This document shows positions 5,053 to 55,116 of a stretch of 64,000 bases of DNA, piece by piece. The position numbers and the translations under genes are program-made. This DNA is from Candidatus Aminicenantes bacterium (GTDB lineage: Bacteria > Acidobacteriota > Aminicenantia > Aminicenantales > Saccharicenantaceae): contig CAWECI010000008.1 of NCBI GenBank assembly GCA_963807525.1, positions 33,011 to 97,010 of the forward strand. Direction: 5' to 3'. How positions within the stretch are numbered: position 1 is the first letter of the stretch; every line of letters begins with the position of its first letter. Below the pieces are notes generated by a model that worked only from the letters and a program-made list of their open reading frames with translations, ran no database searches and was not told the DNA's origin.

Positions 5053-6803
5053 TTGGCCACGACCCCCGAGCTCAGGCCCGAGATCCGGAGAAGGGCGATG
5101 GCCATCCGCGGCAGCTCGAAGACGTTCCGGTACATCGTGTAGCGGGGCTCCCAGTGCGTCGCGAACTTGGCCTTGTAGTCCGACAGGCCCTCGTAGCTGA
5201 AAATGAAGTTCAGGCGCTGCAGGAAGTACTGGACGGCCCTCTCCTCGGCCCCCGACTCCTCCCCGGTCAGGAAGCCGGACAGAGGCGCCAGCCCGAGGCT
5301 GAACCGGCGGAACCCGTTCTCCTTTTGCTTCTCGAAGAGCTTGATGAAAAGGCTGTCCATGATGCCCGGCGGCGCGTCCCGGCAATGGCGCATCAGGTCG
5401 ATGGTCGTCTCGCCCGGGGCGTAGGACCGGACGATGTTGACGAACGCGAGGACTTGACCGTCCGGCCCCAGGGCGGCGAAAACCGGGGTCGGCCGGACCT
5501 CGGCCTCGGAAAAGACCCCGACCGTGAAGCCTCTTTCCCGGCGGCCCGGGATGCGCAGCCAATCGTCCGAGACCTCGCGCAGGCGGGCCAAAACCTCGTC
5601 CGGGATGGGCGGCTCGTAAAAGACCGCCCGCAGACCGGTCTTGTCGAACTGGTTGAGGGCGTGGCGGATGTGTTTCATCGACCTGCCGCCCAGGTCGAAG
5701 GCGTCGAAGTCGACGATGGCGTCCTCGCCGATCTTCATCTTCTTGAAGCCGGCCTGGCGGTACAACGGCAGGAAATCGGGCAGGACCTGGTAGAAGGCCA
5801 GCCGCCAATCGTTGTCTTCGCAGAACGCCGCGAACGAGCGGATGAGCCCCGGCAATTCCTCCTCCGGGCCGACGGGGTCGGCCAGGGTCACCGCGAAGGC
5901 GCGCGACACTCGATAAGCGATGAAGGAGGCGCCGGATTCGGAGAAGAAGAAGGCCTTGTCATGCGCCAGCTTGAACGGGTCGAGCGCGGACCGGCCGTGC
6001 GACTCCAGGATCCGGGCGGCCTCGGCCCGCTCTTCGGGCAGGGTCCGGAGCCTGTAGAAGACCGGCCGGAAGAGCGAGTAGAGCACAAAGAGCAGGGCCG
6101 TGACGGAGACGAGGTCGAGCGAATCCAGGAACCAGACCGCGAAACGCGTCTGCGGGACGAGGAAGGGATCCTGGACAAAGACCAGGGCGGAGAGCGTCCG
6201 GCGGACGCCGTCCGCGAAGCTGAAGGTGATGCCGAAGTCCCGCTTTTCCAGGAGCCAGAAGCCTACGGCGCCGTAGAGGAGCGTGACGGCGAGGGCGATC
6301 CCGAGCGGGATCAGCGTGGTCCGAAGGTCCGGCAGGCTGCTCTTGACCCGGAAGTTCTTCCGGGCCAGGAACAGGACGATCATCAGGACGAGCGAGAGCG
6401 TGGCCTCCTCGTAATCCAGACCCTTGGTCAGGTGGAAGACGACCGAGAGCCCGGCCAGGATCATCACCAGGACGAAGGCCCGCTTCTTGCGCTTGAGGAT
6501 GTTCAGCGAGGACACGGCCAGGGCGAAGCCGATGAGGAGGGACAGGAAGCGGGACAGGTGCACGAACGAGAGGGGGAAGATCCCCCCCAGAACGGTCATG
6601 CGCGTGGGCAGGGATCGGCTCGCCGCGGAGATGATGTTGACGATGCCGCTGCCGAGGGTGATAAGCCCCACGGCCCGCACGACGATCCGATGCGACAGCC
6701 GCCGGCGAGCCCCTCGAGGAGCGGGCCGGTCCCCCTCCCCGGCTTCGGTCCTCGGGAATTCGCTCGTGCGCGCGCTCGTCATGGCGTCGGGCGGCGGCAG
6801 CAA
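5049..6803 (-). CDS. mprF: aminoacyl-phosphatidylglycerol synthase (MprF synthase half: about 6 TM helices plus cytosolic tRNA-dependent transferase domain)
   Basis: N-terminal hydrophobic helices, then a C-terminal domain resembling the MprF/LysX transferase domain (FIAYRVSRAFAVTLADPVGP.., YKAKFATHWEPRY). Start uncertain: TTG 6803 or ATG 6782. Confidence 0.8.
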   Translation of the reverse strand: MLPPPDAMTSARTSEFPRTEAGEGDRPAPRGARRRLSHRIVVRAVGLITLGSGIVNIISAASRSLPTRMTVLGGIFPLSFVHLSRFLSLLIGFALAVSSLNILKRKKRAFVLVMILAGLSVVFHLTKGLDYEEATLSLVLMIVLFLARKNFRVKSSLPDLRTTLIPLGIALAVTLLYGAVGFWLLEKRDFGITFSFADGVRRTLSALVFVQDPFLVPQTRFAVWFLDSLDLVSVTALLFVLYSLFRPVFYRLRTLPEERAEAARILESHGRSALDPFKLAHDKAFFFSESGASFIAYRVSRAFAVTLADPVGPEEELPGLIRSFAAFCEDNDWRLAFYQVLPDFLPLYRQAGFKKMKIGEDAIVDFDAFDLGGRSMKHIRHALNQFDKTGLRAVFYEPPIPDEVLARLREVSDDWLRIPGRRERGFTVGVFSEAEVRPTPVFAALGPDGQVLAFVNIVRSYAPGETTIDLMRHCRDAPPGIMDSLFIKLFEKQKENGFRRFSLGLAPLSGFLTGEESGAEERAVQYFLQRLNFIFSYEGLSDYKAKFATHWEPRYTMYRNVFELPRMAIALLRISGLSSGVVAK

Positions 6804-6813
6804 AGGCCGGAAG

Positions 6814-8601
6814 CTACAGCTTCTCCATGGCGCCGATCCCGACGTCGGCCGGGTCCACGTCCACGAAGACGACCCTGTTCCCGCCGGCCCTGTAGAGTAC
6901 GATCACATGCGTGGCCCCGCCCCCGGTCAAGGTCCCGGTCCAACGTCCGATATTCACGGTGTCGGCCGCAAAAGAGCCCGTCAGGCCGGCGTTGCCGTCG
7001 ATCACGCCGGAAGCGTTGACGTCCATCGTGCCGGTCAGCGCCCCGCCGGCCGCCAGGGTCCGCCCCAGCCAATCGTTCTCGCCAACGCTTGAGACGAACT
7101 CGAAGCTGACCGCGTAGTCGCCGGCCAGGTCTCCCGCCGACTGCGGCACGATCTGGCCCGTCGATACGGCCAGGGCGTCATAATCGAGGAACAGCGCGCC
7201 GCCGCCCCCGGCCGGATCGTTCGGGTCGGCGAGGTCGATGGCCGGGTCGACGAGGAAGACCCGCAGGGAGGCGAGGCTGGCCAGCTGGTCGACGGACGCG
7301 GGCAGATCGAGAGTCCCCACCCCGTTCCCGTTGATCGAATAGCGGGCCTGGCCGGCGATCGACGTCGACGTGATGAAGTTGGCGTTGTTGAGATCGGCAC
7401 GGCCGGTCGCGAAATTGCCCGCGCCGTCGGCCGCGAATTGGCCGGCATAGGCGAGAGATCCATAAGCCGTCCCCCCGGCTCCGGCCAGGGCGAAATTCCC
7501 CGTCAGGGACGCGTTCGAGAACGTCCCGCCCAGGCCGGCGTCGCCTTGCCCGAACAGGCTGCCGGCCGTCACGAACGACGGGGAATCCGCTTCGAGCAGC
7601 CGCAGGACCCGGCCTTGGACGGCGTAATAGACGTAGCTCACGCCGACGCTCAGATCGAGCGTGCCCCGGCCGAAGGCGTCCGGGGCCGTGACCGACCCGG
7701 TGACCGCAGAAGACGTTGTGATGCCGGCGTCGTTCTCGAAGTAGGTGCCGGCGGTCACGCTGCCGCTGGAAGCGGTCATCGAGAGAACGCCGCCGCGGGC
7801 GATCGGCAGCTGGATGGAGAGGTCCTCGCCCTGGGACGTGAAGGCGAACGGCCCGCTGATGGCCGCGGGGTCGAGGGCGCTCGCGGACTGGAGGTCCAGG
7901 CTGCCGCTCGAGGTGGCCGCGCCATCGAACTGCATGATGAGCGCGTGTCCGGCCGAGACCACGGTGATGCTGAACGTCTCGACCCCCTTCTGGGGCAGGT
8001 CCGAGTTGCTCACGCTGAGGTTGATGCTGCCCCGGCCGTCCGGCCCGACCGCATAGGTGCCGGCGAGGCTGTCGGGGCCGGCTTGGCGGGAGGGATCGGC
8101 ATAGTCCTGCTCGCCCCCGGTGATCAGGCCGGCGCCGTCGGCGACGAGGGTGCCGGCGGCAGCGTAGCCGCCGGTCTCGTTCTGTCCCTGGACCGCAAAG
8201 ACATAGGTCCCGCTGAGCAGGCCGTTCGAGCCGACCGGGACGACGGAGACGACGAGGCTGTCCTGGGCCGTGGCGTCCGCGGCCGCCGTGGCGACAACGG
8301 TCACCGTGCCGGCCGTCGCCGGGGCGGTGTAGACCGTCGAAGCCCCGCTCGCGGTGTGGGCGGGCGTGAACGTGCCGCACGACCCGCCGGAGCAGGACCA
8401 ATCGACGCCGGCGTCCGAGGAATCATTGCTGACCGCCGCCGTCAGGCTCACCGATTGGCCGCCGGTGACGACGCTCGGCACGGTGATCAGGGAAACGATG
8501 ACCTGTTCATGGTTCCGGGAGCAGCCGGAAGCAAGGACCAGGACGAGCGCCAGAGCGGCGAACCCCGAAAGAACGGCTATGGTCCGGCCACGGACTTTCA
8601 T
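6814..8601 (-). CDS. lipoprotein, N-terminal Ig-like domain plus Gly/Ala/Ser/Thr-rich beta-rich body; function unknown
   Basis: Signal peptide with lipobox LASGC. Long uninterrupted ORF with high third-position GC. The antisense and out-of-frame ORFs here are Arg/Pro junk. Confidence 0.7.
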   Translation of the reverse strand: MKVRGRTIAVLSGFAALALVLVLASGCSRNHEQVIVSLITVPSVVTGGQSVSLTAAVSNDSSDAGVDWSCSGGSCGTFTPAHTASGASTVYTAPATAGTVTVVATAAADATAQDSLVVSVVPVGSNGLLSGTYVFAVQGQNETGGYAAAGTLVADGAGLITGGEQDYADPSRQAGPDSLAGTYAVGPDGRGSINLSVSNSDLPQKGVETFSITVVSAGHALIMQFDGAATSSGSLDLQSASALDPAAISGPFAFTSQGEDLSIQLPIARGGVLSMTASSGSVTAGTYFENDAGITTSSAVTGSVTAPDAFGRGTLDLSVGVSYVYYAVQGRVLRLLEADSPSFVTAGSLFGQGDAGLGGTFSNASLTGNFALAGAGGTAYGSLAYAGQFAADGAGNFATGRADLNNANFITSTSIAGQARYSINGNGVGTLDLPASVDQLASLASLRVFLVDPAIDLADPNDPAGGGGALFLDYDALAVSTGQIVPQSAGDLAGDYAVSFEFVSSVGENDWLGRTLAAGGALTGTMDVNASGVIDGNAGLTGSFAADTVNIGRWTGTLTGGGATHVIVLYRAGGNRVVFVDVDPADVGIGAMEKL

Positions 8602-49876: not shown

Positions 49877-51466
49877 TCACTGCCGCACCAGGACGAGGTT
49901 CGCGGTGATGCCCATGGCGTTGGCGAACTGCCCCCGCAGCCCGCCGGATACGACCTGGAGGGCCAGCCGGTAGGGCAGGCCCTGGGCCGGCATGACCATG
50001 CCGTCGATCGAGATCTGGGCCTGCTGGCAGACGGCCTGGATGGCGGCGCCATCAAAGGTGCCCTGGAACGGGTTCTGTTCCCGGACCTGGTGCGCCATGC
50101 CGTCCTGGCCCGTCTGCTGGTAGGCGAAGACGAAGACGAGCCGGACCTGGCCGCCCTGCTGGGCTATCTGGCAGACACCGGTCTGGGATTGGCCGTTCGG
50201 CAGGGTGATCTGGCAGCCCCAATTCCCGGTCAAAGAGCCTCCGGGGTTCGGGGCCGCCTGGCCGTATCCCTGCTGGACGGGGGCTCCCCGGCCGGCCGGG
50301 GCCCCTCGTTCCGCGATCTCCATGATGCCCCATTTCTCGAGGATGTCGGCCGGCAGCGGATCGAGCTCGGGATTGCCGACGCCGGCCACCCAGAAGGCCC
50401 GGACATCGACGATGTTGAAGCGCCCGGTCTTCATGATCCCGTCCCAGGTCTTCGACGCGCTCTTGACGGCCTCCTCGAAGCTCATGCTCTGCGCGTACCC
50501 GTCCCCGACGCCGGTGGCCTCGACGGGCAGGATACCGCCCTTGGGCAGGCGGGCCGCGGGGAAGCAGTGGCCGTCCATGCTCACGAGCAGCGGCTCGATG
50601 TTGACCGAGTTCATGAGCGCCGCCATCAAGATGGCCAGGTCGATGCACGTCCCGCTCCGCTTCTCGATGGTGTCGCGCGGGAACTGGAGGCTCTGGACCG
50701 ACTTGATGTCGTAGGACATATTCGGGTCTTGGATGTTCGAGGGATGCTGGTAGCTGATGTGGATCGTCCGCATCATCTCGTAGAGCTGCCGGAGGACGGC
50801 GACGCAGTCGTCGTTGCTGCTCGAGGCGCCCAACCCGCCGGCCTTCTTGTTGGCCAACGAGGCCAGGCGGCCGACGACGGCGTCGTCGCTGCGCGAGACC
50901 CAGGCCGCGAACAAGGGATAATTGGTGTCCTCGTCCTGGTAGGCCCCGGTCCTTTCTTCGGCGGTCATGTCGGAGAAAAAGAACTCGTACCGGCTCATGA
51001 CGGTCACCCGGCGCGAGTCGGTGAACGTCTGCTTCTTGCCGCCGGCGTCGGTGTACTCATATTCGACATACAGGTCGGCCGGGGCCCGGCTGGTCAGGCG
51101 GGCCGTCTGGGCCGTGAAGATCGGGTAGTAGAGATCCACGACCGTCTGGCCGGGGTCCACGGCCGGGACCTGGTGCCAGTTGCTCCAGTCGGACTCGGCG
51201 TACTCGGACACGCGGTAATGGACGCGCAGGTTCGACAAGCGCCCGCGGGTGGTGTTGTGGAAGACCGACTTGGCCAGCCACATCGGCACCGGGCAATCCC
51301 GCGAACCATAGGCCTTGTAGGCGCCGCCGATGACCCGGTCCTTGAACTTCAGGTCGAACGCGACCTCGCCGCCGGCCTTCGGTCCCAGCAGCAGGCCCAG
51401 GATGCCCAGGATGAGACCCAGGCCGAAAAGGGCGCCGCCGACGATCTTGAGGGTGGCCGGCTTCAT
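49877..51466 (-). CDS. N-terminally anchored transglutaminase-like (papain-fold Cys) domain protein
   Basis: TM helix IVGGALFGLGLILGILGLLLG. ..EKRSGTCIDLAILMAALMNS.. resembles the transglutaminase-core Cys region. Confidence 0.6.
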   Translation of the reverse strand: MKPATLKIVGGALFGLGLILGILGLLLGPKAGGEVAFDLKFKDRVIGGAYKAYGSRDCPVPMWLAKSVFHNTTRGRLSNLRVHYRVSEYAESDWSNWHQVPAVDPGQTVVDLYYPIFTAQTARLTSRAPADLYVEYEYTDAGGKKQTFTDSRRVTVMSRYEFFFSDMTAEERTGAYQDEDTNYPLFAAWVSRSDDAVVGRLASLANKKAGGLGASSSNDDCVAVLRQLYEMMRTIHISYQHPSNIQDPNMSYDIKSVQSLQFPRDTIEKRSGTCIDLAILMAALMNSVNIEPLLVSMDGHCFPAARLPKGGILPVEATGVGDGYAQSMSFEEAVKSASKTWDGIMKTGRFNIVDVRAFWVAGVGNPELDPLPADILEKWGIMEIAERGAPAGRGAPVQQGYGQAAPNPGGSLTGNWGCQITLPNGQSQTGVCQIAQQGGQVRLVFVFAYQQTGQDGMAHQVREQNPFQGTFDGAAIQAVCQQAQISIDGMVMPAQGLPYRLALQVVSGGLRGQFANAMGITANLVLVRQ

Positions 51467-51621
51467 GGCCGGACTCCGGAAAGGACAAAAGAAAAGAGAC
51501 CCAGCGGTGAACCCATGGGAAGGCCTCCTTGGAAGATTGGCCCTATCATCGTCAAGTGACCGGGGCTTGTCAAGGGCCGTCGGGACCTAGAGAGGAGCCC
51601 GAAAAGGGACCGTCGCCGGGC

Positions 51622-51649
51622 TTGACACCGGAGTCGGACGTGCTATAGT
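51622..51649 (+). promoter_or_regulatory. near-consensus sigma70 promoter of the RiPP-like cassette
   Basis: TTGACA-16 nt-TATAGT in a GC-rich intergenic region, about 70 nt upstream of ATG 51723. Confidence 0.55.
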
Positions 51650-51722
51650 TCAGCCATCTTGTCTGCCGTCAGGGGCGGCGGATCCGTCGCCCGCCAACTG
51701 ACGGACATGGAGGTGCAGCGCC

Positions 51723-51878
51723 ATGGAAGACCGCGATCGTCCCAAGGATCTCCAAGAGCCCGAGACCGGGAAACGATCCTACGACCCGCCCGAGGCGAAT
51801 GTCATCCCCGTCAAGCTCGAGGACCGGGTCCTCGGCTGCAATTTCTCCACGATCAGCGTTTGCGAGCTGACGGAGTAG
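51723..51878 (+). CDS. 51-aa candidate RiPP precursor peptide (not in the ORF track)
   Basis: GGAGGTG lies 7 nt before the ATG. MEDRDRPKDLQEPETGKRSYDPPEANVIPVKLEDRVLGCNFSTISVCELTE has an acidic leader-like N-terminus and a Cys-containing C-terminus. It sits directly upstream of PqqD and rSAM/SPASM genes. The overlapping 77-aa track ORF (51659..51892) is an Arg-rich wrong-frame read. Confidence 0.6.
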   Translation: MEDRDRPKDLQEPETGKRSYDPPEANVIPVKLEDRVLGCNFSTISVCELTE

Positions 51879-51893
51879 GATCGGCTCTCTAGC

Positions 51894-51937
51894 GGAAGCC
51901 CGGGCTTCCCTCCTCCGTGATCCCGCCCGTCGCGGGA
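51894..51937 (+). terminator. two intercistronic stem-loops (possible partial terminator / attenuator between precursor and enzymes)
   Basis: The perfect 16-nt palindrome GGAAGCCCGGGCTTCC (51894-51909) and TCCCGC-CCGTC-GCGGGA (51921-51937), within the 90-nt gap. Confidence 0.35.
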
Positions 51938-51968
51938 GAGGTTGAGGTTCGCCTGGACATCCAAAGGC

Positions 51969-52235
51969 ATGAAGAGAAACCAGGATTGCGTGCTCAGGGA
52001 CATCGGCGGCCAAGCCCTGCTCGTCCCGGTCGGGGCCAAAGTCAAGGACATGAACGCCCTGATCACGCTCAACCCGACGGGCCGCCGCGTCTGGGAGCTT
52101 CTGGCCGAGGACCGGACGCCGGAAGCCCTGATCGAGAGGATCACGGCCGAATTCGAGGCCGATCCGGCAAGGGTCCAAGCCGATGTCCGGGCCTTTCTCG
52201 AGCGTCTCGAACAGCTGGGATTGGTCGAGCCGTGA
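51969..52235 (+). CDS. PqqD-family peptide chaperone (RiPP recognition element)
   Basis: 88 aa: ..ALLVPVG....MNALITLNPTGRRVWELLAEDRTPEALIERITAEFEADPARVQADVRAFLERLEQLGLV is the typical PqqD/RRE pattern. ATG 51969 is preferred to TTG 51942. Confidence 0.8.
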   Translation: MKRNQDCVLRDIGGQALLVPVGAKVKDMNALITLNPTGRRVWELLAEDRTPEALIERITAEFEADPARVQADVRAFLERLEQLGLVEP

Positions 52236-53314
52236 GCGCCACGCCGCTCGAATACGGTCCCCTCGTCCGGGACATGCTCGGCCGGGCGGCCGCCGTCCGG
52301 CAGCCGGCCCACGGCACCTTCGAGCTGACCGGCCGATGCAATCTCGCCTGCCGCATGTGCTATGTCCGCCAGGCCCCGGGCGACAGGGCGGCGGCGGCAG
52401 CCGAGCTTCCCGCTTCGGCCTGGCTGGATCTGGCCGGCCAGGCCGTCGACGACGGCATGGTCTTCCTCCTTCTCACGGGCGGGGAGGTCCTCCTGCGCCG
52501 GGACTTCTTCGAGATCTACGAACCCCTGACCCGCCTGGGGCTCGTCCTGGCCCTCTTCACCAACGGCACCCTGATCACGCGAGACGTGGCGGCCAGGCTG
52601 AGCGAGGCGCCCCCCAGCCGGACCGAGATCACCCTTTACGGCGCCACCGCCTCGACGTTCGAGGCCGTCACCGGCGTGCCGGGCAGTTACGCAGCCTGCG
52701 TGGCCGGTATCGAAGCGCTTCTCGCCCGGCGGGTCCCGCTCGGGCTCAAAACCACGCTCACCCGGCGTAACGCCGTCGAGCTCGAGGCCATGCGGGCCAT
52801 GGCGCGCGACTGGGGCGTGCCGTTCTCGGCCAGCTGCTTGCTGGCGAAGCGGCCCGACCGGGGGCCGTCGGAGATCGACGAGTGCCGTCTCTCCCCGGCC
52901 GATTGTATCGCGCTCGAAGCCACGGACCGTGCCTCGGCCGACGATTGGGCCGAGGTGGCCCTCAAGGGCCCCGCCGCGCCGGCCCACGGCAATTTCTATT
53001 GCCGTTCGGGCCGGGCCGCCTTCGTCATCGGCCCGTCGGGAGAGATGAACGTCTGCTCGCTCCTGCCTCGCCCGGGAGCCCGGCCGCTCGGATCGGGCTT
53101 TGCCGAGGCCTGGAGGCAGGTGGGCCGTTTCGTCGAGACCGCGCCTCCACCGGCCGAGGCGTGCCGCGCCTGCGAGGCCCTTCCCTACTGCGGGCGCTGC
53201 CCGGCCTGGTCGATGATGGAAACGGGAACACTGACCGAGCCTGTCCCCTATCTCTGCAGCATCGCCCGGGCCCGGCTCGAGCGCCATGGCCATCCGAAGG
53301 GGACGGCGGGCTAG
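52232..53314 (+). CDS. radical SAM enzyme with C-terminal SPASM domain (peptide maturase)
   Basis: The GTG overlaps the PqqD stop (GTGA). CNLACRMC (CX3CX2C). GGEVLL. Seven-Cys SPASM pattern C-X12-G-X4-C ... CRACEALPYCGRC ... C. Confidence 0.85.
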   Translation: MSATPLEYGPLVRDMLGRAAAVRQPAHGTFELTGRCNLACRMCYVRQAPGDRAAAAAELPASAWLDLAGQAVDDGMVFLLLTGGEVLLRRDFFEIYEPLTRLGLVLALFTNGTLITRDVAARLSEAPPSRTEITLYGATASTFEAVTGVPGSYAACVAGIEALLARRVPLGLKTTLTRRNAVELEAMRAMARDWGVPFSASCLLAKRPDRGPSEIDECRLSPADCIALEATDRASADDWAEVALKGPAAPAHGNFYCRSGRAAFVIGPSGEMNVCSLLPRPGARPLGSGFAEAWRQVGRFVETAPPPAEACRACEALPYCGRCPAWSMMETGTLTEPVPYLCSIARARLERHGHPKGTAG

Positions 53315-55116
53315 CTTTTCATTCTCGATTCGCGCAGCTGGGCCACATAGAGCGCTCTGCCGGCGTCGACCCCCAATTGCCTCAGGCCGTGTTCCATGGG
53401 CGTCGTGTAGCCCCGGCCGGACCGGCGCGGCCCGAGCGCCAGCACGCCGCAGAAGGCGTGGCCCAGCGTCCGCGAGGTCGTCAGAGGGACTAGGAAAGAG
53501 AACGCCGAGCCCTCGGGCATCGACGCGAGCCGTCCCTGCCGCAGGCCCTCACCGGTCGCTTCGTCGACGGGAAGCCGCCGCGGCAATCCGGCCTGGGCCG
53601 GAGTCTCCTGGGCCAACATCAGGCTTCCGTCCGCCGCGGGCGTGTAGGCGGCCGCCGAGGCCAGGTCGAGCTGCCCGGCGACGGCGCGGACGAGCGTGTC
53701 CATCATATCGGGCGGCGAGAGAAGGGCCTGGACCTCGAGATTGAGCAGGCCGCAGGTCTCGGCAAAGCTGACCTCCTCCGGCTTCATCTTGCGGTCCACG
53801 AACCTCTGGATGCGTTGCCGCAGGGGGTTAAAGGCGGCCACGGGGAAGGCCGCGGTCGCGGCAACGGCCAGCAGCCGGGACACATTGCCGAAGATCTTGC
53901 CGACCAGGGTCGTCAGCACGGCCAGGATGGCGGCGCTCATCACGGTCAGGGCGGCCGTGAGCGTGCTGTACACGAGCGACCTGTTGATGACGATATCGAT
54001 ATCCCACAGACGATGCTTCAGGAGGGCCAGGCCGAGCGCGACGGCCATCAGGGCGTAAGGGATCTGATAGCCCACGACGCTGATCTGCCAGAGGATGAAC
54101 ACCAGGACGGCCGAAGCGTGCGACGGACCCGCTCCCCCGCCGTTGACCACAAGGGACGCGACCTGGGAGACGGCGTAGCCTGCCACGACGGAGGCCAGCG
54201 CGATGACGAACCACTTGATCTGCTCCCGTTGGGCCGGCGTCGAGACGCGCCGGTAGCGGCGCATCTGAGAGACGAACATGGCCACGATCATGAGGAGGTA
54301 GGCGGCGAGCGTGGCCCCCGGGGCCCAGTTGACCGGCCGGGCCGCGGCCCAGAACCACTGGGCCACGGTCCACGCCCAGACGATCGCGACCAGGACGCGG
54401 CCGCCGCGGGGCACCCATCTCCCGTCCGGGTACAGGAAGCCCAGGAAGGTGAAGGCCGCGGCGAAGCCGGTCGGAACGAGCGCGGCGGCCAATCCCTGCC
54501 AGGGCGACGGGTCGACGGCCAGGAGCTGCACGCTGCTCGTCGCGGCCGCGCTGAAGGTGACCAGGGCGATAGAGGCGAAATAAGTCAACGCCGTGCCCCG
54601 GCCCCGGGAGATGATCAGGAACGAGACGGCCAGGTAAACCAGCAGGACGATGATGTCGAGGATCAGCATCTCGTTGATGATGACGTCCATGCCGACGCCG
54701 AGGGCAGATAACCGGTCGGCGATGGAGCCGGGCTCGGGGGAGCGGATCACCTCGACGGCGCGGGGCGCGGCCGTTCCCGTCCGGACGGACAGGCTTGCGG
54801 GCGTGCCCGTCCAGCCGTTGACCCGGTCGAAGAGCTGGGCCGCGGTCGGGTCCTTCTCGAGGGCCCGGCCGTCGACGGCGACCAGGACATCGCCGGGGAG
54901 AATGCCGGCCTTGGCCGAGGGAGTCCCCGGCGCGATCTCGGTGAGAACGACTTCGCCGGCGGCATTGATGCCGAATGAAACGCCGCCGAGGGACACGATG
55001 TGCTGCCGCCTGTAGGCGGCCGGGACCGCGACGACGATCAGGACGACCGTCAGCGCGACGATGACCAGGCGCGCCGCGCGCAGGAGCTTCAGCGGGAGGG
55101 TCGTCAGGGGGGTCAT
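53311..55116 (-). CDS. PDZ domain - polytopic (about 8 TM) - C-terminal GAF-like sensor-type membrane protein without recognisable output domain
   Basis: N-terminal anchor and PDZ (..PSAKAGILPGDVLVAVDG..), then multiple hydrophobic helices, then a soluble C-terminal domain. Confidence 0.65.
   Translation of the reverse strand: MTPLTTLPLKLLRAARLVIVALTVVLIVVAVPAAYRRQHIVSLGGVSFGINAAGEVVLTEIAPGTPSAKAGILPGDVLVAVDGRALEKDPTAAQLFDRVNGWTGTPASLSVRTGTAAPRAVEVIRSPEPGSIADRLSALGVGMDVIINEMLILDIIVLLVYLAVSFLIISRGRGTALTYFASIALVTFSAAATSSVQLLAVDPSPWQGLAAALVPTGFAAAFTFLGFLYPDGRWVPRGGRVLVAIVWAWTVAQWFWAAARPVNWAPGATLAAYLLMIVAMFVSQMRRYRRVSTPAQREQIKWFVIALASVVAGYAVSQVASLVVNGGGAGPSHASAVLVFILWQISVVGYQIPYALMAVALGLALLKHRLWDIDIVINRSLVYSTLTAALTVMSAAILAVLTTLVGKIFGNVSRLLAVAATAAFPVAAFNPLRQRIQRFVDRKMKPEEVSFAETCGLLNLEVQALLSPPDMMDTLVRAVAGQLDLASAAAYTPAADGSLMLAQETPAQAGLPRRLPVDEATGEGLRQGRLASMPEGSAFSFLVPLTTSRTLGHAFCGVLALGPRRSGRGYTTPMEHGLRQLGVDAGRALYVAQLRESRMKS

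Follow-up and report, generated by a model that had tools for sequence, protein, structure and literature searches.

We examined a 64,000-nucleotide (nt) stretch of the genome of Candidatus Aminicenantes bacterium (GenBank assembly GCA_963807525.1, contig CAWECI010000008.1, positions 33,011 to 97,010 of the forward strand), hereafter the window, in which a 51-codon open reading frame (ORF) at 51723..51878 precedes the genes for a PqqD-family protein and a radical S-adenosylmethionine (rSAM) enzyme of the SPASM type. The ORF is a real gene under purifying selection. The family of peptides to which its product belongs is linked to PqqD and rSAM genes across phyla, and the peptide is established as the co-evolving partner of the PqqD recognition protein and the SPASM rSAM enzyme. 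Taken as a whole, the observations are best explained, with somewhat better than even confidence, if the peptide is the precursor of a three-gene operon (precursor, PqqD, rSAM/SPASM) for a ribosomally made peptide with post-translational modifications (RiPP), acting by the steps proposed below. The three genes and the parts of the peptide, numbered from the first letter of the window, are the following.

51723..51878, + strand: precursor ORF, 51 amino acids (aa), MEDRDRPKDLQEPETGKRSYDPPEANVIPVKLEDRVLGCNFSTISVCELTE
51723..51836, + strand: leader region, codons 1-38, of which the first 19 residues are variable
51780..51836, + strand: recognition motif Y20-G38, Y-x-P-P…V-x-L-E-[ED]-R-[VL]-L-G, conserved across phyla
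51837..51878, + strand: core peptide CNFSTISVCELTE, codons 39-51, with the stop codon; conservation breaks between G38 and C39
51969..52235, + strand: discrete PqqD-family RiPP recognition element (RRE), 88 aa; PF05402, E = 1.1e-18, 67.8 bits against a cutoff of 23.4
52232..53314, + strand: rSAM/SPASM maturase, 360 aa; PF04055, E = 9e-15; GTG start, overlapping the PqqD stop by 4 nt

The local sequence is 67% GC, and 113 ORFs 40 aa or longer touch a 16-kb section of it. Because short ORFs are abundant in DNA of this composition, a 51-codon open frame is not significant by itself, and we therefore argue for a gene from comparison with relatives. Among 5.8 billion proteins searched there were 14 homologous protein clusters, 67-98% identical and without frameshift; 13 of the 14 are 51 aa long or, in a single case, 48 aa. 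The sequence LEDRVLGCN-STI-VCELTE is unchanged in 15 sequences, with F41 and S45 varying in one sequence each, and the N-terminal half is variable. When the DNA of five close lineages was compared, the proportion of nonsynonymous differences (pN) in codons 32-51 was 0.00, against a proportion of synonymous differences (pS) of 0.07-0.56; pN in the leader of the same lineages was 0.10-0.33. The GC content of the ORF at the three codon positions is 0.63/0.38/0.81, and the value at third positions (GC3) resembles that of the PqqD gene (0.82) and the rSAM gene (0.88).

These results bear on an initial annotation of the window, made from the sequence alone, which had proposed the gene. Its coordinates and translation were exact, as were its readings of a GGAGGTG Shine-Dalgarno (SD) site 7 nt before the ATG and of GC-rich third positions like those of the neighbouring genes. 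It had described the ORF as unlisted, which holds for the ORF track first used; public gene callers already predict it, and the identical sequence is deposited at NCBI and JGI as 'hypothetical protein'. It had also set aside an Arg-rich ORF of 77 aa in another frame (51659..51892), rightly so, and had named conservation of one frame or the other in related genomes as the way to decide, a comparison that came out in favour of the 51-aa frame. No second copy of the precursor was found within the window.

The opposing view is that the ORF is not a substrate at all, being either a chance frame, with the 77-aa or an antisense frame as the true gene, or a regulatory upstream ORF. Short ORFs are indeed common in this GC-rich DNA, which is the point in its favour. 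However, the 77-aa frame contains stops in five relatives (L086, L087, L011, L014 and L042; L and P numbers are our handles for individual members of the family) and has a GC3 of 0.53, the antisense ORFs run across the PqqD and rSAM genes, both of which are supported by homology, and the amino-acid sequence of the 51-aa peptide is under purifying selection. In addition, its leader motif is kept across phyla, with cores that are variable and occur in multiple copies. This view is already contradicted, and we give it practically no credence.

The organization of the precursor family was drawn from 63 non-redundant precursors. Their leader consensus is K-x-P-Y-E-P-P-K-A-T-F-V-P-L-K-L-E-E-R-L-L-G-C, in which Tyr(-19) and Cys(0) keep a spacing of 19 residues in all precursors but one (62/63). 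Pro(-16) is invariant, Y(-19) near-invariant, and K(-22) and E-E-R(-6..-4) nearly invariant. The cores, in contrast to the leader with its fixed register, are hypervariable and 12-33 aa long; exactly two Cys are present in 56 of the 63, mostly 7-10 residues apart, with the first Cys at the leader/core junction. Because a fixed leader register followed by hypervariable cores is the classic RiPP pattern, we place the leader/core boundary between G38 and C39. The initial annotation had split the peptide at the same point (…RVLG followed by CNFSTISVCELTE), which coincides with the break in family-wide conservation; the mark of the leader, however, is the fixed Y20-G38 motif and not the acidic character that it had noted in the N-terminus. 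Tandem precursor copies with different cores occur at five loci, namely L009 (three copies), L020 (two), L027 (two), L034 (two) and L035 (three). An rSAM-dependent RiPP system is generically recognized by a short precursor, its leader conserved and its core variable, encoded beside an rSAM/SPASM enzyme and an RRE, and all of these features were found here.

The window peptide matched no Pfam or NCBIfam family at E ≤ 1, and a peptide profile search of 1.84 billion representatives gave 29 clusters at E ≤ 0.001, a count that understates the size of the family because peptides of this length score low. The sole NCBIfam match among ten relatives, to TIGR04335, was at chance level (14 bits, E = 0.024; cutoff 99) and was rejected.

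Homologues of the rSAM enzyme number more than 1,197, many of them 63-91% identical and from several phyla, and a scan of one genome per species gave 376 relatives. From these we retrieved 80 loci, which fall into a close group (L001-L045) and a distant group (L046-L080). Acidobacteriota, Desulfobacterota-type deltaproteobacteria, Chloroflexota, Planctomycetota, Nitrospirota and Gammaproteobacteria are among the phyla represented. In the close group, whose enzymes are 42-73% identical to that of the window (at least 54% in all but four loci), the PqqD and rSAM genes are in every case closely preceded by a small ORF with the family leader. This linkage, together with the shared leader register, bears out the proposal of the initial annotation that the peptide is the precursor for the adjacent rSAM maturase. 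In the distant group the enzyme is 34-41% identical and the precursor gene lies downstream of it; the leader there reads K-K-P-Y-K-K-P-E-I-x-x-V-x-L-x-P-E-E-A-V-L-x-A-C-K, and the cores mostly carry three Cys and usually end in G-S.

The window itself sits in a nested clade without a kinase gene, whose core is fixed as C-N-F-S-T-I-x-V-C-[GE]-L-T-E or, more loosely written, C-N-F-S-T-[IV]-x-x-C-[GE]-L-T-E; the clade signature is C-x-[FY]-x-x-x-x-x-C-x-L-T-E. Cores of the sister group read C-N-F-S-[ST]-[YF]-R-x-C-G-P-N-[GR]. A gammaproteobacterial clade (L017, from Lamprocystis purpurea DSM 4197, with L018 and L024) keeps the family leader, and its cores end in …RLLGPGNFPGNGVPCGC; the cultured L. 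purpurea DSM 4197 could be an experimental entry point. Some members are binned as archaea, among them P0015, L028 and L043 (Bathyarchaeia, Thermosphaera, 'uncultured archaeon'), which could reflect horizontal transfer or mis-binning.

The PqqD gene starts 90 nt downstream of the precursor ORF. The top NCBIfam matches of its product are lasso-type PqqD chaperones, all below their cutoffs. In the rSAM enzyme the CX3CX2C motif (C36, C40, C43) and seven C-terminal Cys (C257, C275, C311, C314, C320, C323 and C342), a full SPASM-type set, are invariant in 12 homologues. The enzyme matches 58 NCBIfam models. AhbD is among its best matches and covers the N-terminal half only; the longest model match is that to MftC, which spans profile positions 11-327 of 339. 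The full SPASM Cys set and best matches that include MftC, ScmE, PqqE, StsB, AlbA and SkfB mark it as a peptide-modifying rSAM enzyme. The nearest solved structures by sequence are SkfB (E = 1.9e-16) and PqqE (E = 2e-12), and CteB was absent from the PDB matches of the rSAM profile up to E ≤ 10. In one homologue, P0089, PqqD and rSAM are naturally fused in a protein of 446 aa.

The system resembles known rSAM RiPP pathways, yet it belongs, by the comparisons made, to no named class. Sactipeptide systems (SkfA/SkfB, SboA/AlbA, StsA/StsB) likewise pair a short precursor, bearing Cys donors in its core, with an rSAM/SPASM enzyme and an RRE, and SkfB is the best solved-structure match, although this match is remote and confined to the core and those to StsB and AlbA are partial. 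However, the RRE is fused to the enzyme in those systems and is a separate protein here, and the core in the window has only two Cys in 13 residues. The enzyme scored 50.1 bits with AlbA and 59.6 with StsB, against cutoffs of 850 and 625, which places it outside the known sactisynthase families.

For the chemistry we favour Cys-derived thioethers in the core, at roughly even chances, a prediction from sequence. Thioethers are favoured because Cys is the only core feature conserved among precursors whose enzymes are 59-73% identical, and because the nearest characterized relatives include thioether synthases. The prevalence of two-Cys cores, with the first Cys fixed at the junction, likewise points to Cys as the reactive residues. 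For the same reason, that only the core Cys are conserved in those relatives, backbone C-alpha acceptors of the sactionine type appear slightly more likely than side-chain acceptors.

Side-chain acceptors are what the initial annotation had suggested, reading C-X3-T and C-X3-E as a ranthionine pattern. Such a ranthipeptide would carry two thioethers, from the sulfur of Cys39 to Thr43 and from that of Cys47 to Glu51, with C-X3-acceptor spacing as in freyrasin. The known ranthipeptides (freyrasin, PapA/PapB; thermocellin, CteA/CteB) share with the window a Cys-containing core, the C-X3-Thr and C-X3-Glu spacings and a predicted modification at the C-terminus of the core. Both Cys39 and Cys47 are, as the annotation stated, followed four residues on by Thr43 and Glu51, and the pattern is partly conserved: C-X3-[TS] is found in most of the clade, with Thr or Ser at Cys39+4 in nearly all CNF(S/T)-clade members, and the LTE sub-clade, the only one with C-X3-E, keeps Glu51 without exception. 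The distant group 2 leader (K-K-P-Y-K-K-P-E-I-x-x-V-x-L) presumably resembles the freyrasin-type K-x-Y-x-K-P-x-L, which we treat as a lead and not as a test.

Elsewhere the pattern varies. Thr43 is replaced by Ser in some members and by His in one, P0156 (CLFAHSIHCNLTE), and the sister clade, with enzymes 66-71% identical, has Gly or Arg at Cys2+4 (CGPNG/R) in place of Glu51. In L006 and L011 one further residue follows Glu51 (Val and Leu, respectively), and family-wide the acceptor positions are hypervariable. The discrete RRE is another difference from known ranthipeptides. No SCIFF or ranthipeptide model stands among the best 25 of the 58 NCBIfam matches, and the failure to detect CteB, set against the value for SkfB, similarly argues against relatedness to CteB, PapB or the SCIFF maturases. 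We consider side-chain thioethers at these two positions unlikely.

About as unlikely, in our estimate, is some other rSAM modification, such as a cyclophane at Phe41, another C-C or C-O cross-link or an epimerization, with the Cys serving a disulfide, a metal or an Fe-S cluster. All of the LTE/PN clade keeps an aromatic residue (F/Y) at Cys1+2, the enzyme finds its nearest full-length NCBIfam match in the mycofactocin maturase, which performs C-C chemistry (87.9 bits), and clades that contain sactisynthases are polyfunctional (PMC10288494). However, the Cys1+2 position is mostly Lys (26/63), and at times some other residue, in kinase-bearing relatives with enzymes 59-68% identical, so that a Phe41 cyclophane is less likely as the chemistry of the whole family, and Cys remains the only core residue conserved family-wide.

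The pathways for pyrroloquinoline quinone (PQQ; PqqA/D/E) and mycofactocin (MftA/B/C) have the identical gene logic of a small peptide, a PqqD-family chaperone and an rSAM/SPASM enzyme. By analogy, the window peptide could give rise to a cofactor-like molecule that stays inside the cell, in place of a secreted peptide. The minimal trio without protease or exporter would suit this, as would a core that is invariant in the clade beside a drifting leader, and MftC as the best full-length match of the enzyme. The scores fall far short of those families, however: the mycofactocin model TIGR03962 gave 87.9 bits against a cutoff of 265, PqqE 66 against 381.35, and PqqD (TIGR03859) 23.6 against 46. 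The peptide ends in CELTE instead of GVY, and its core contains no E-x3-Y. The family also differs from these trios in its C-terminal motif, its hypervariable multi-copy cores and its exporters, and close enzymes act on such cores in loci linked to ABC exporters and leader-type peptidases, as fits natural products. A cofactor role thus seems quite improbable.

The systems described in silico by Haft as SynChlorMet (ScmC/D/E/F), GeoRSP and HPr-rel-A contain the same component types, that is, an HprK-like protein, PqqD and an rSAM/SPASM enzyme. The proteins of the window scored 84.2 bits with ScmE and 75.1 with ScmF (cutoffs of 400 each) and 25.7 with ScmD (cutoff 100); the GeoRSP models gave 60.9 for the rSAM enzyme (cutoff 400) and 31.8 for PqqD (cutoff 100). 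ScmC at 24-27 bits and HprK_rel_B at 27-38 are weak cross-matches far below curated cutoffs. Because every match lies far below its curated cutoff, we treat the present family as separate from these systems. To our knowledge, they too are uncharacterized experimentally. In the literature searched, which included few subscription-journal papers, we found nothing on the leader and core motifs or on this combination of genes, and the main text of the CSPP compendium paper makes no mention of this group (PMC10288494).

Relatives of the window cluster carry additional genes. At most loci there are three of these downstream of the enzyme gene.

P-loop HPr-kinase-like protein, ~290 aa: weak matches to HprK_rel_B, HprK_rel_A and ScmC
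S24/S26-type peptidase, ~155 aa: PF00717, G-S-S-M motif
NTP_transf_5 protein, ~410 aa: PF14907

Presence of the kinase was closely associated with a C-terminal Ser or Thr in the precursor (with/without Ser or Thr: 39/0 where the kinase was present and 1/16 where it was absent; Fisher p = 4e-13, uncorrected for phylogeny). Kinase-bearing loci with Ser/Thr-ending precursors include L008-L010, L015, L027-L041 and L046-L080, and the sole exception is L025, which has a Ser end and no kinase within reach. A neighbour-joining tree shows at least three losses of the kinase, each accompanied by loss of the C-terminal Ser. In lasso peptide pathways, HPr-kinase-like enzymes (PadeK, ThcoK) place a phosphate on the precursor's C-terminal Ser, and the nucleotidyltransferase-like PsmN further decorates the phospho-Ser (PMC9266682). 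The link between kinase and C-terminal Ser predicts a lasso-style C-terminal phosphorylation or glycosylation on an rSAM RiPP scaffold. The wider family thus shares with the kinase-containing lasso systems (paeninodin PadeK, pseudomycoidin PsmK/PsmN; PMC9266682) the HPr-kinase-like and NTP_transf_5 components and the Ser-ending precursors, but those systems have the class-defining lasso cyclase and protease where this family has an rSAM enzyme. Neither the kinase nor the C-terminal Ser of the kinase-bearing relatives has survived in the clade of the window: the window peptide ends in Glu, and no homologue of the kinase, of the S24 peptidase or of NTP_transf_5 was found in the 64 kb.

An S24-type peptidase gene follows the rSAM gene in the deltaproteobacterial clade members L003, L004 and L020. 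Directly downstream in L001, L004, L038 and L044, at about 5200..7500 of these loci, there is an orthologous fused ABC exporter of 598 aa, 68-71% identical between loci, and its carriers belong to the deltaproteobacterial LTE and PN clades. In relatives with either gene the product is probably processed and exported. Acidobacterial members of the clade have neither the S24 peptidase nor the ABC exporter within reach.

Upstream of the precursor ORF we found putative signals for its expression.

51622..51649, + strand: sigma-70-type promoter, TTGACA-16 nt-(TG)TATAGT, matching 11/12 positions, with an extended -10 TG
51653..51719, + strand: stem-loop in the 5' untranslated region (5'UTR), its outer stem CAUCUU pairing with the SD GGAGGU; no Rfam match
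51709..51715, + strand: SD site GGAGGTG, 7 nt from the ATG at 51723

The region contains three promoter sites, against 0.1 expected from shuffles. Both hexamers lie at equal distance upstream of the ORF in six of eight relatives (L082, L086, L087, L090, L006 and L011), and the other two (L014 and L042) retain TTGACA with a different -10 hexamer. All eight have an SD site of the GGAGG/GGAG type at similar spacing. The stem-loop has a minimum free energy of -34.2 kcal/mol (z = -1.81). In a consensus fold of five homologues four pairs are altered on both sides, and the observed covariation score was reached by one of 500 shuffles. With this modest support, the stem-loop may be a translational control element that masks the ribosome-binding site. 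An Rfam scan of 51400..52100 gave no match. An attenuator in the palindromes between the precursor and PqqD genes (51876..51968) was also considered and rejected, since the region folds no better than shuffles (z = -0.51).

We propose that the operon would be transcribed from its own strong promoter, with the 5'UTR hairpin possibly gating translation. The PqqD protein would then bind the leader through Y20-x-P-P…V-x-L-E-D-R-V-L-G38 and hand the 13-residue core to the rSAM enzyme, which, with its SAM cluster and two auxiliary Fe-S clusters, would cross-link the core by way of hydrogen-atom abstraction. The likeliest products would have one or two thioether bridges with Cys39 and Cys47 as donors. 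Removal of the leader would release a small cyclic peptide for export; the protease and the exporter are not encoded in the operon.

Several observations weigh against this interpretation. The 64-kb window holds no protease or transporter homologous to those of the sister clades. The clade combines an invariant core with a drifting leader, a combination seldom expected of antibiotic-type RiPPs that could be a sign of some other function. Cys39 is not universal, for the cores of L017, L018 and L024 lack the junction Cys and end in C-G-C. The rSAM enzyme reaches the curated cutoff of no NCBIfam family among the best 25 of its 58 matches, and an AlphaFold2 model of the enzyme, built from a 12-sequence alignment, had a mean predicted local distance difference test score (pLDDT) of 49.6 and was unusable.

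The cluster is flanked by two genes for membrane proteins, both on the opposite strand.

49877..51466, - strand: membrane-anchored transglutaminase-like (Cys-protease-fold) protein; PF04473, E = 1.9e-5; PF01841, E = 0.0022
53311..55116, - strand: multi-pass membrane protein, 601 aa, with an N-terminal PDZ domain (PDZ_6, E = 1.4e-8); convergent to the rSAM gene with a 4-nt overlap

The transglutaminase-like gene is divergent from the precursor gene and has a promoter-like site of its own (51573..51545, - strand). It adjoins the cluster in close relatives, is displaced to the opposite side, still nearby, in L014 and L102, and was not found in L006 or L011. Its product is a candidate leader peptidase that may replace the S24 peptidase of the sister clades, and this protein and the PDZ protein are together candidates for the protease and export roles absent from the operon. 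A 152-aa ORF at 53286..53744 (+ strand) was examined as a possible S24 peptidase and dismissed as Arg-rich antisense noise over the PDZ gene.

The PDZ protein adjoins all acidobacterial LTE-type loci that extend far enough (seen in L006, L011, L014 and L094-L102), and in a metagenome scan all nine full-length orthologues (58-100% identical) adjoined an rSAM gene. All nine belong to one clade, and the linkage may be vertical synteny only. Distant homologues of the transmembrane region (residues ~260-500, 26-39% identical) were seen in soil metagenomes (L107, L110, L109 and L118), where they form tandem arrays of three to five copies with no rSAM gene nearby. The precursors of L006 and L011 end in T-E-V and T-E-L, which we take to resemble a class-I PDZ-binding C-terminus. 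One could imagine that the rSAM-cyclized 13-mer is a dedicated ligand whose invariant free C-terminal tail (C-x-L-T-E, or T-E-V/T-E-L in L006 and L011) is read by the co-inherited PDZ protein, the two forming a RiPP and PDZ-receptor signalling pair and not an antibiotic system; we regard this as a long shot. The cross-link itself could be of an undescribed kind.

For the biology of the family, the ABC exporter carried in deltaproteobacterial LTE and PN clades implies that those clades export their product; the window contains no counterpart of it. The family is a well-defined lead for genome mining and not a conceptual surprise. With it, an rSAM maturase family present in at least 376 species-level genomes gains a defined substrate and leader/core boundary, and the fixed leader register provides a simple rule by which hundreds of new cores can be mined. 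The three-gene version in the window is the smallest system in which the chemistry of the enzyme could be determined by co-expression.

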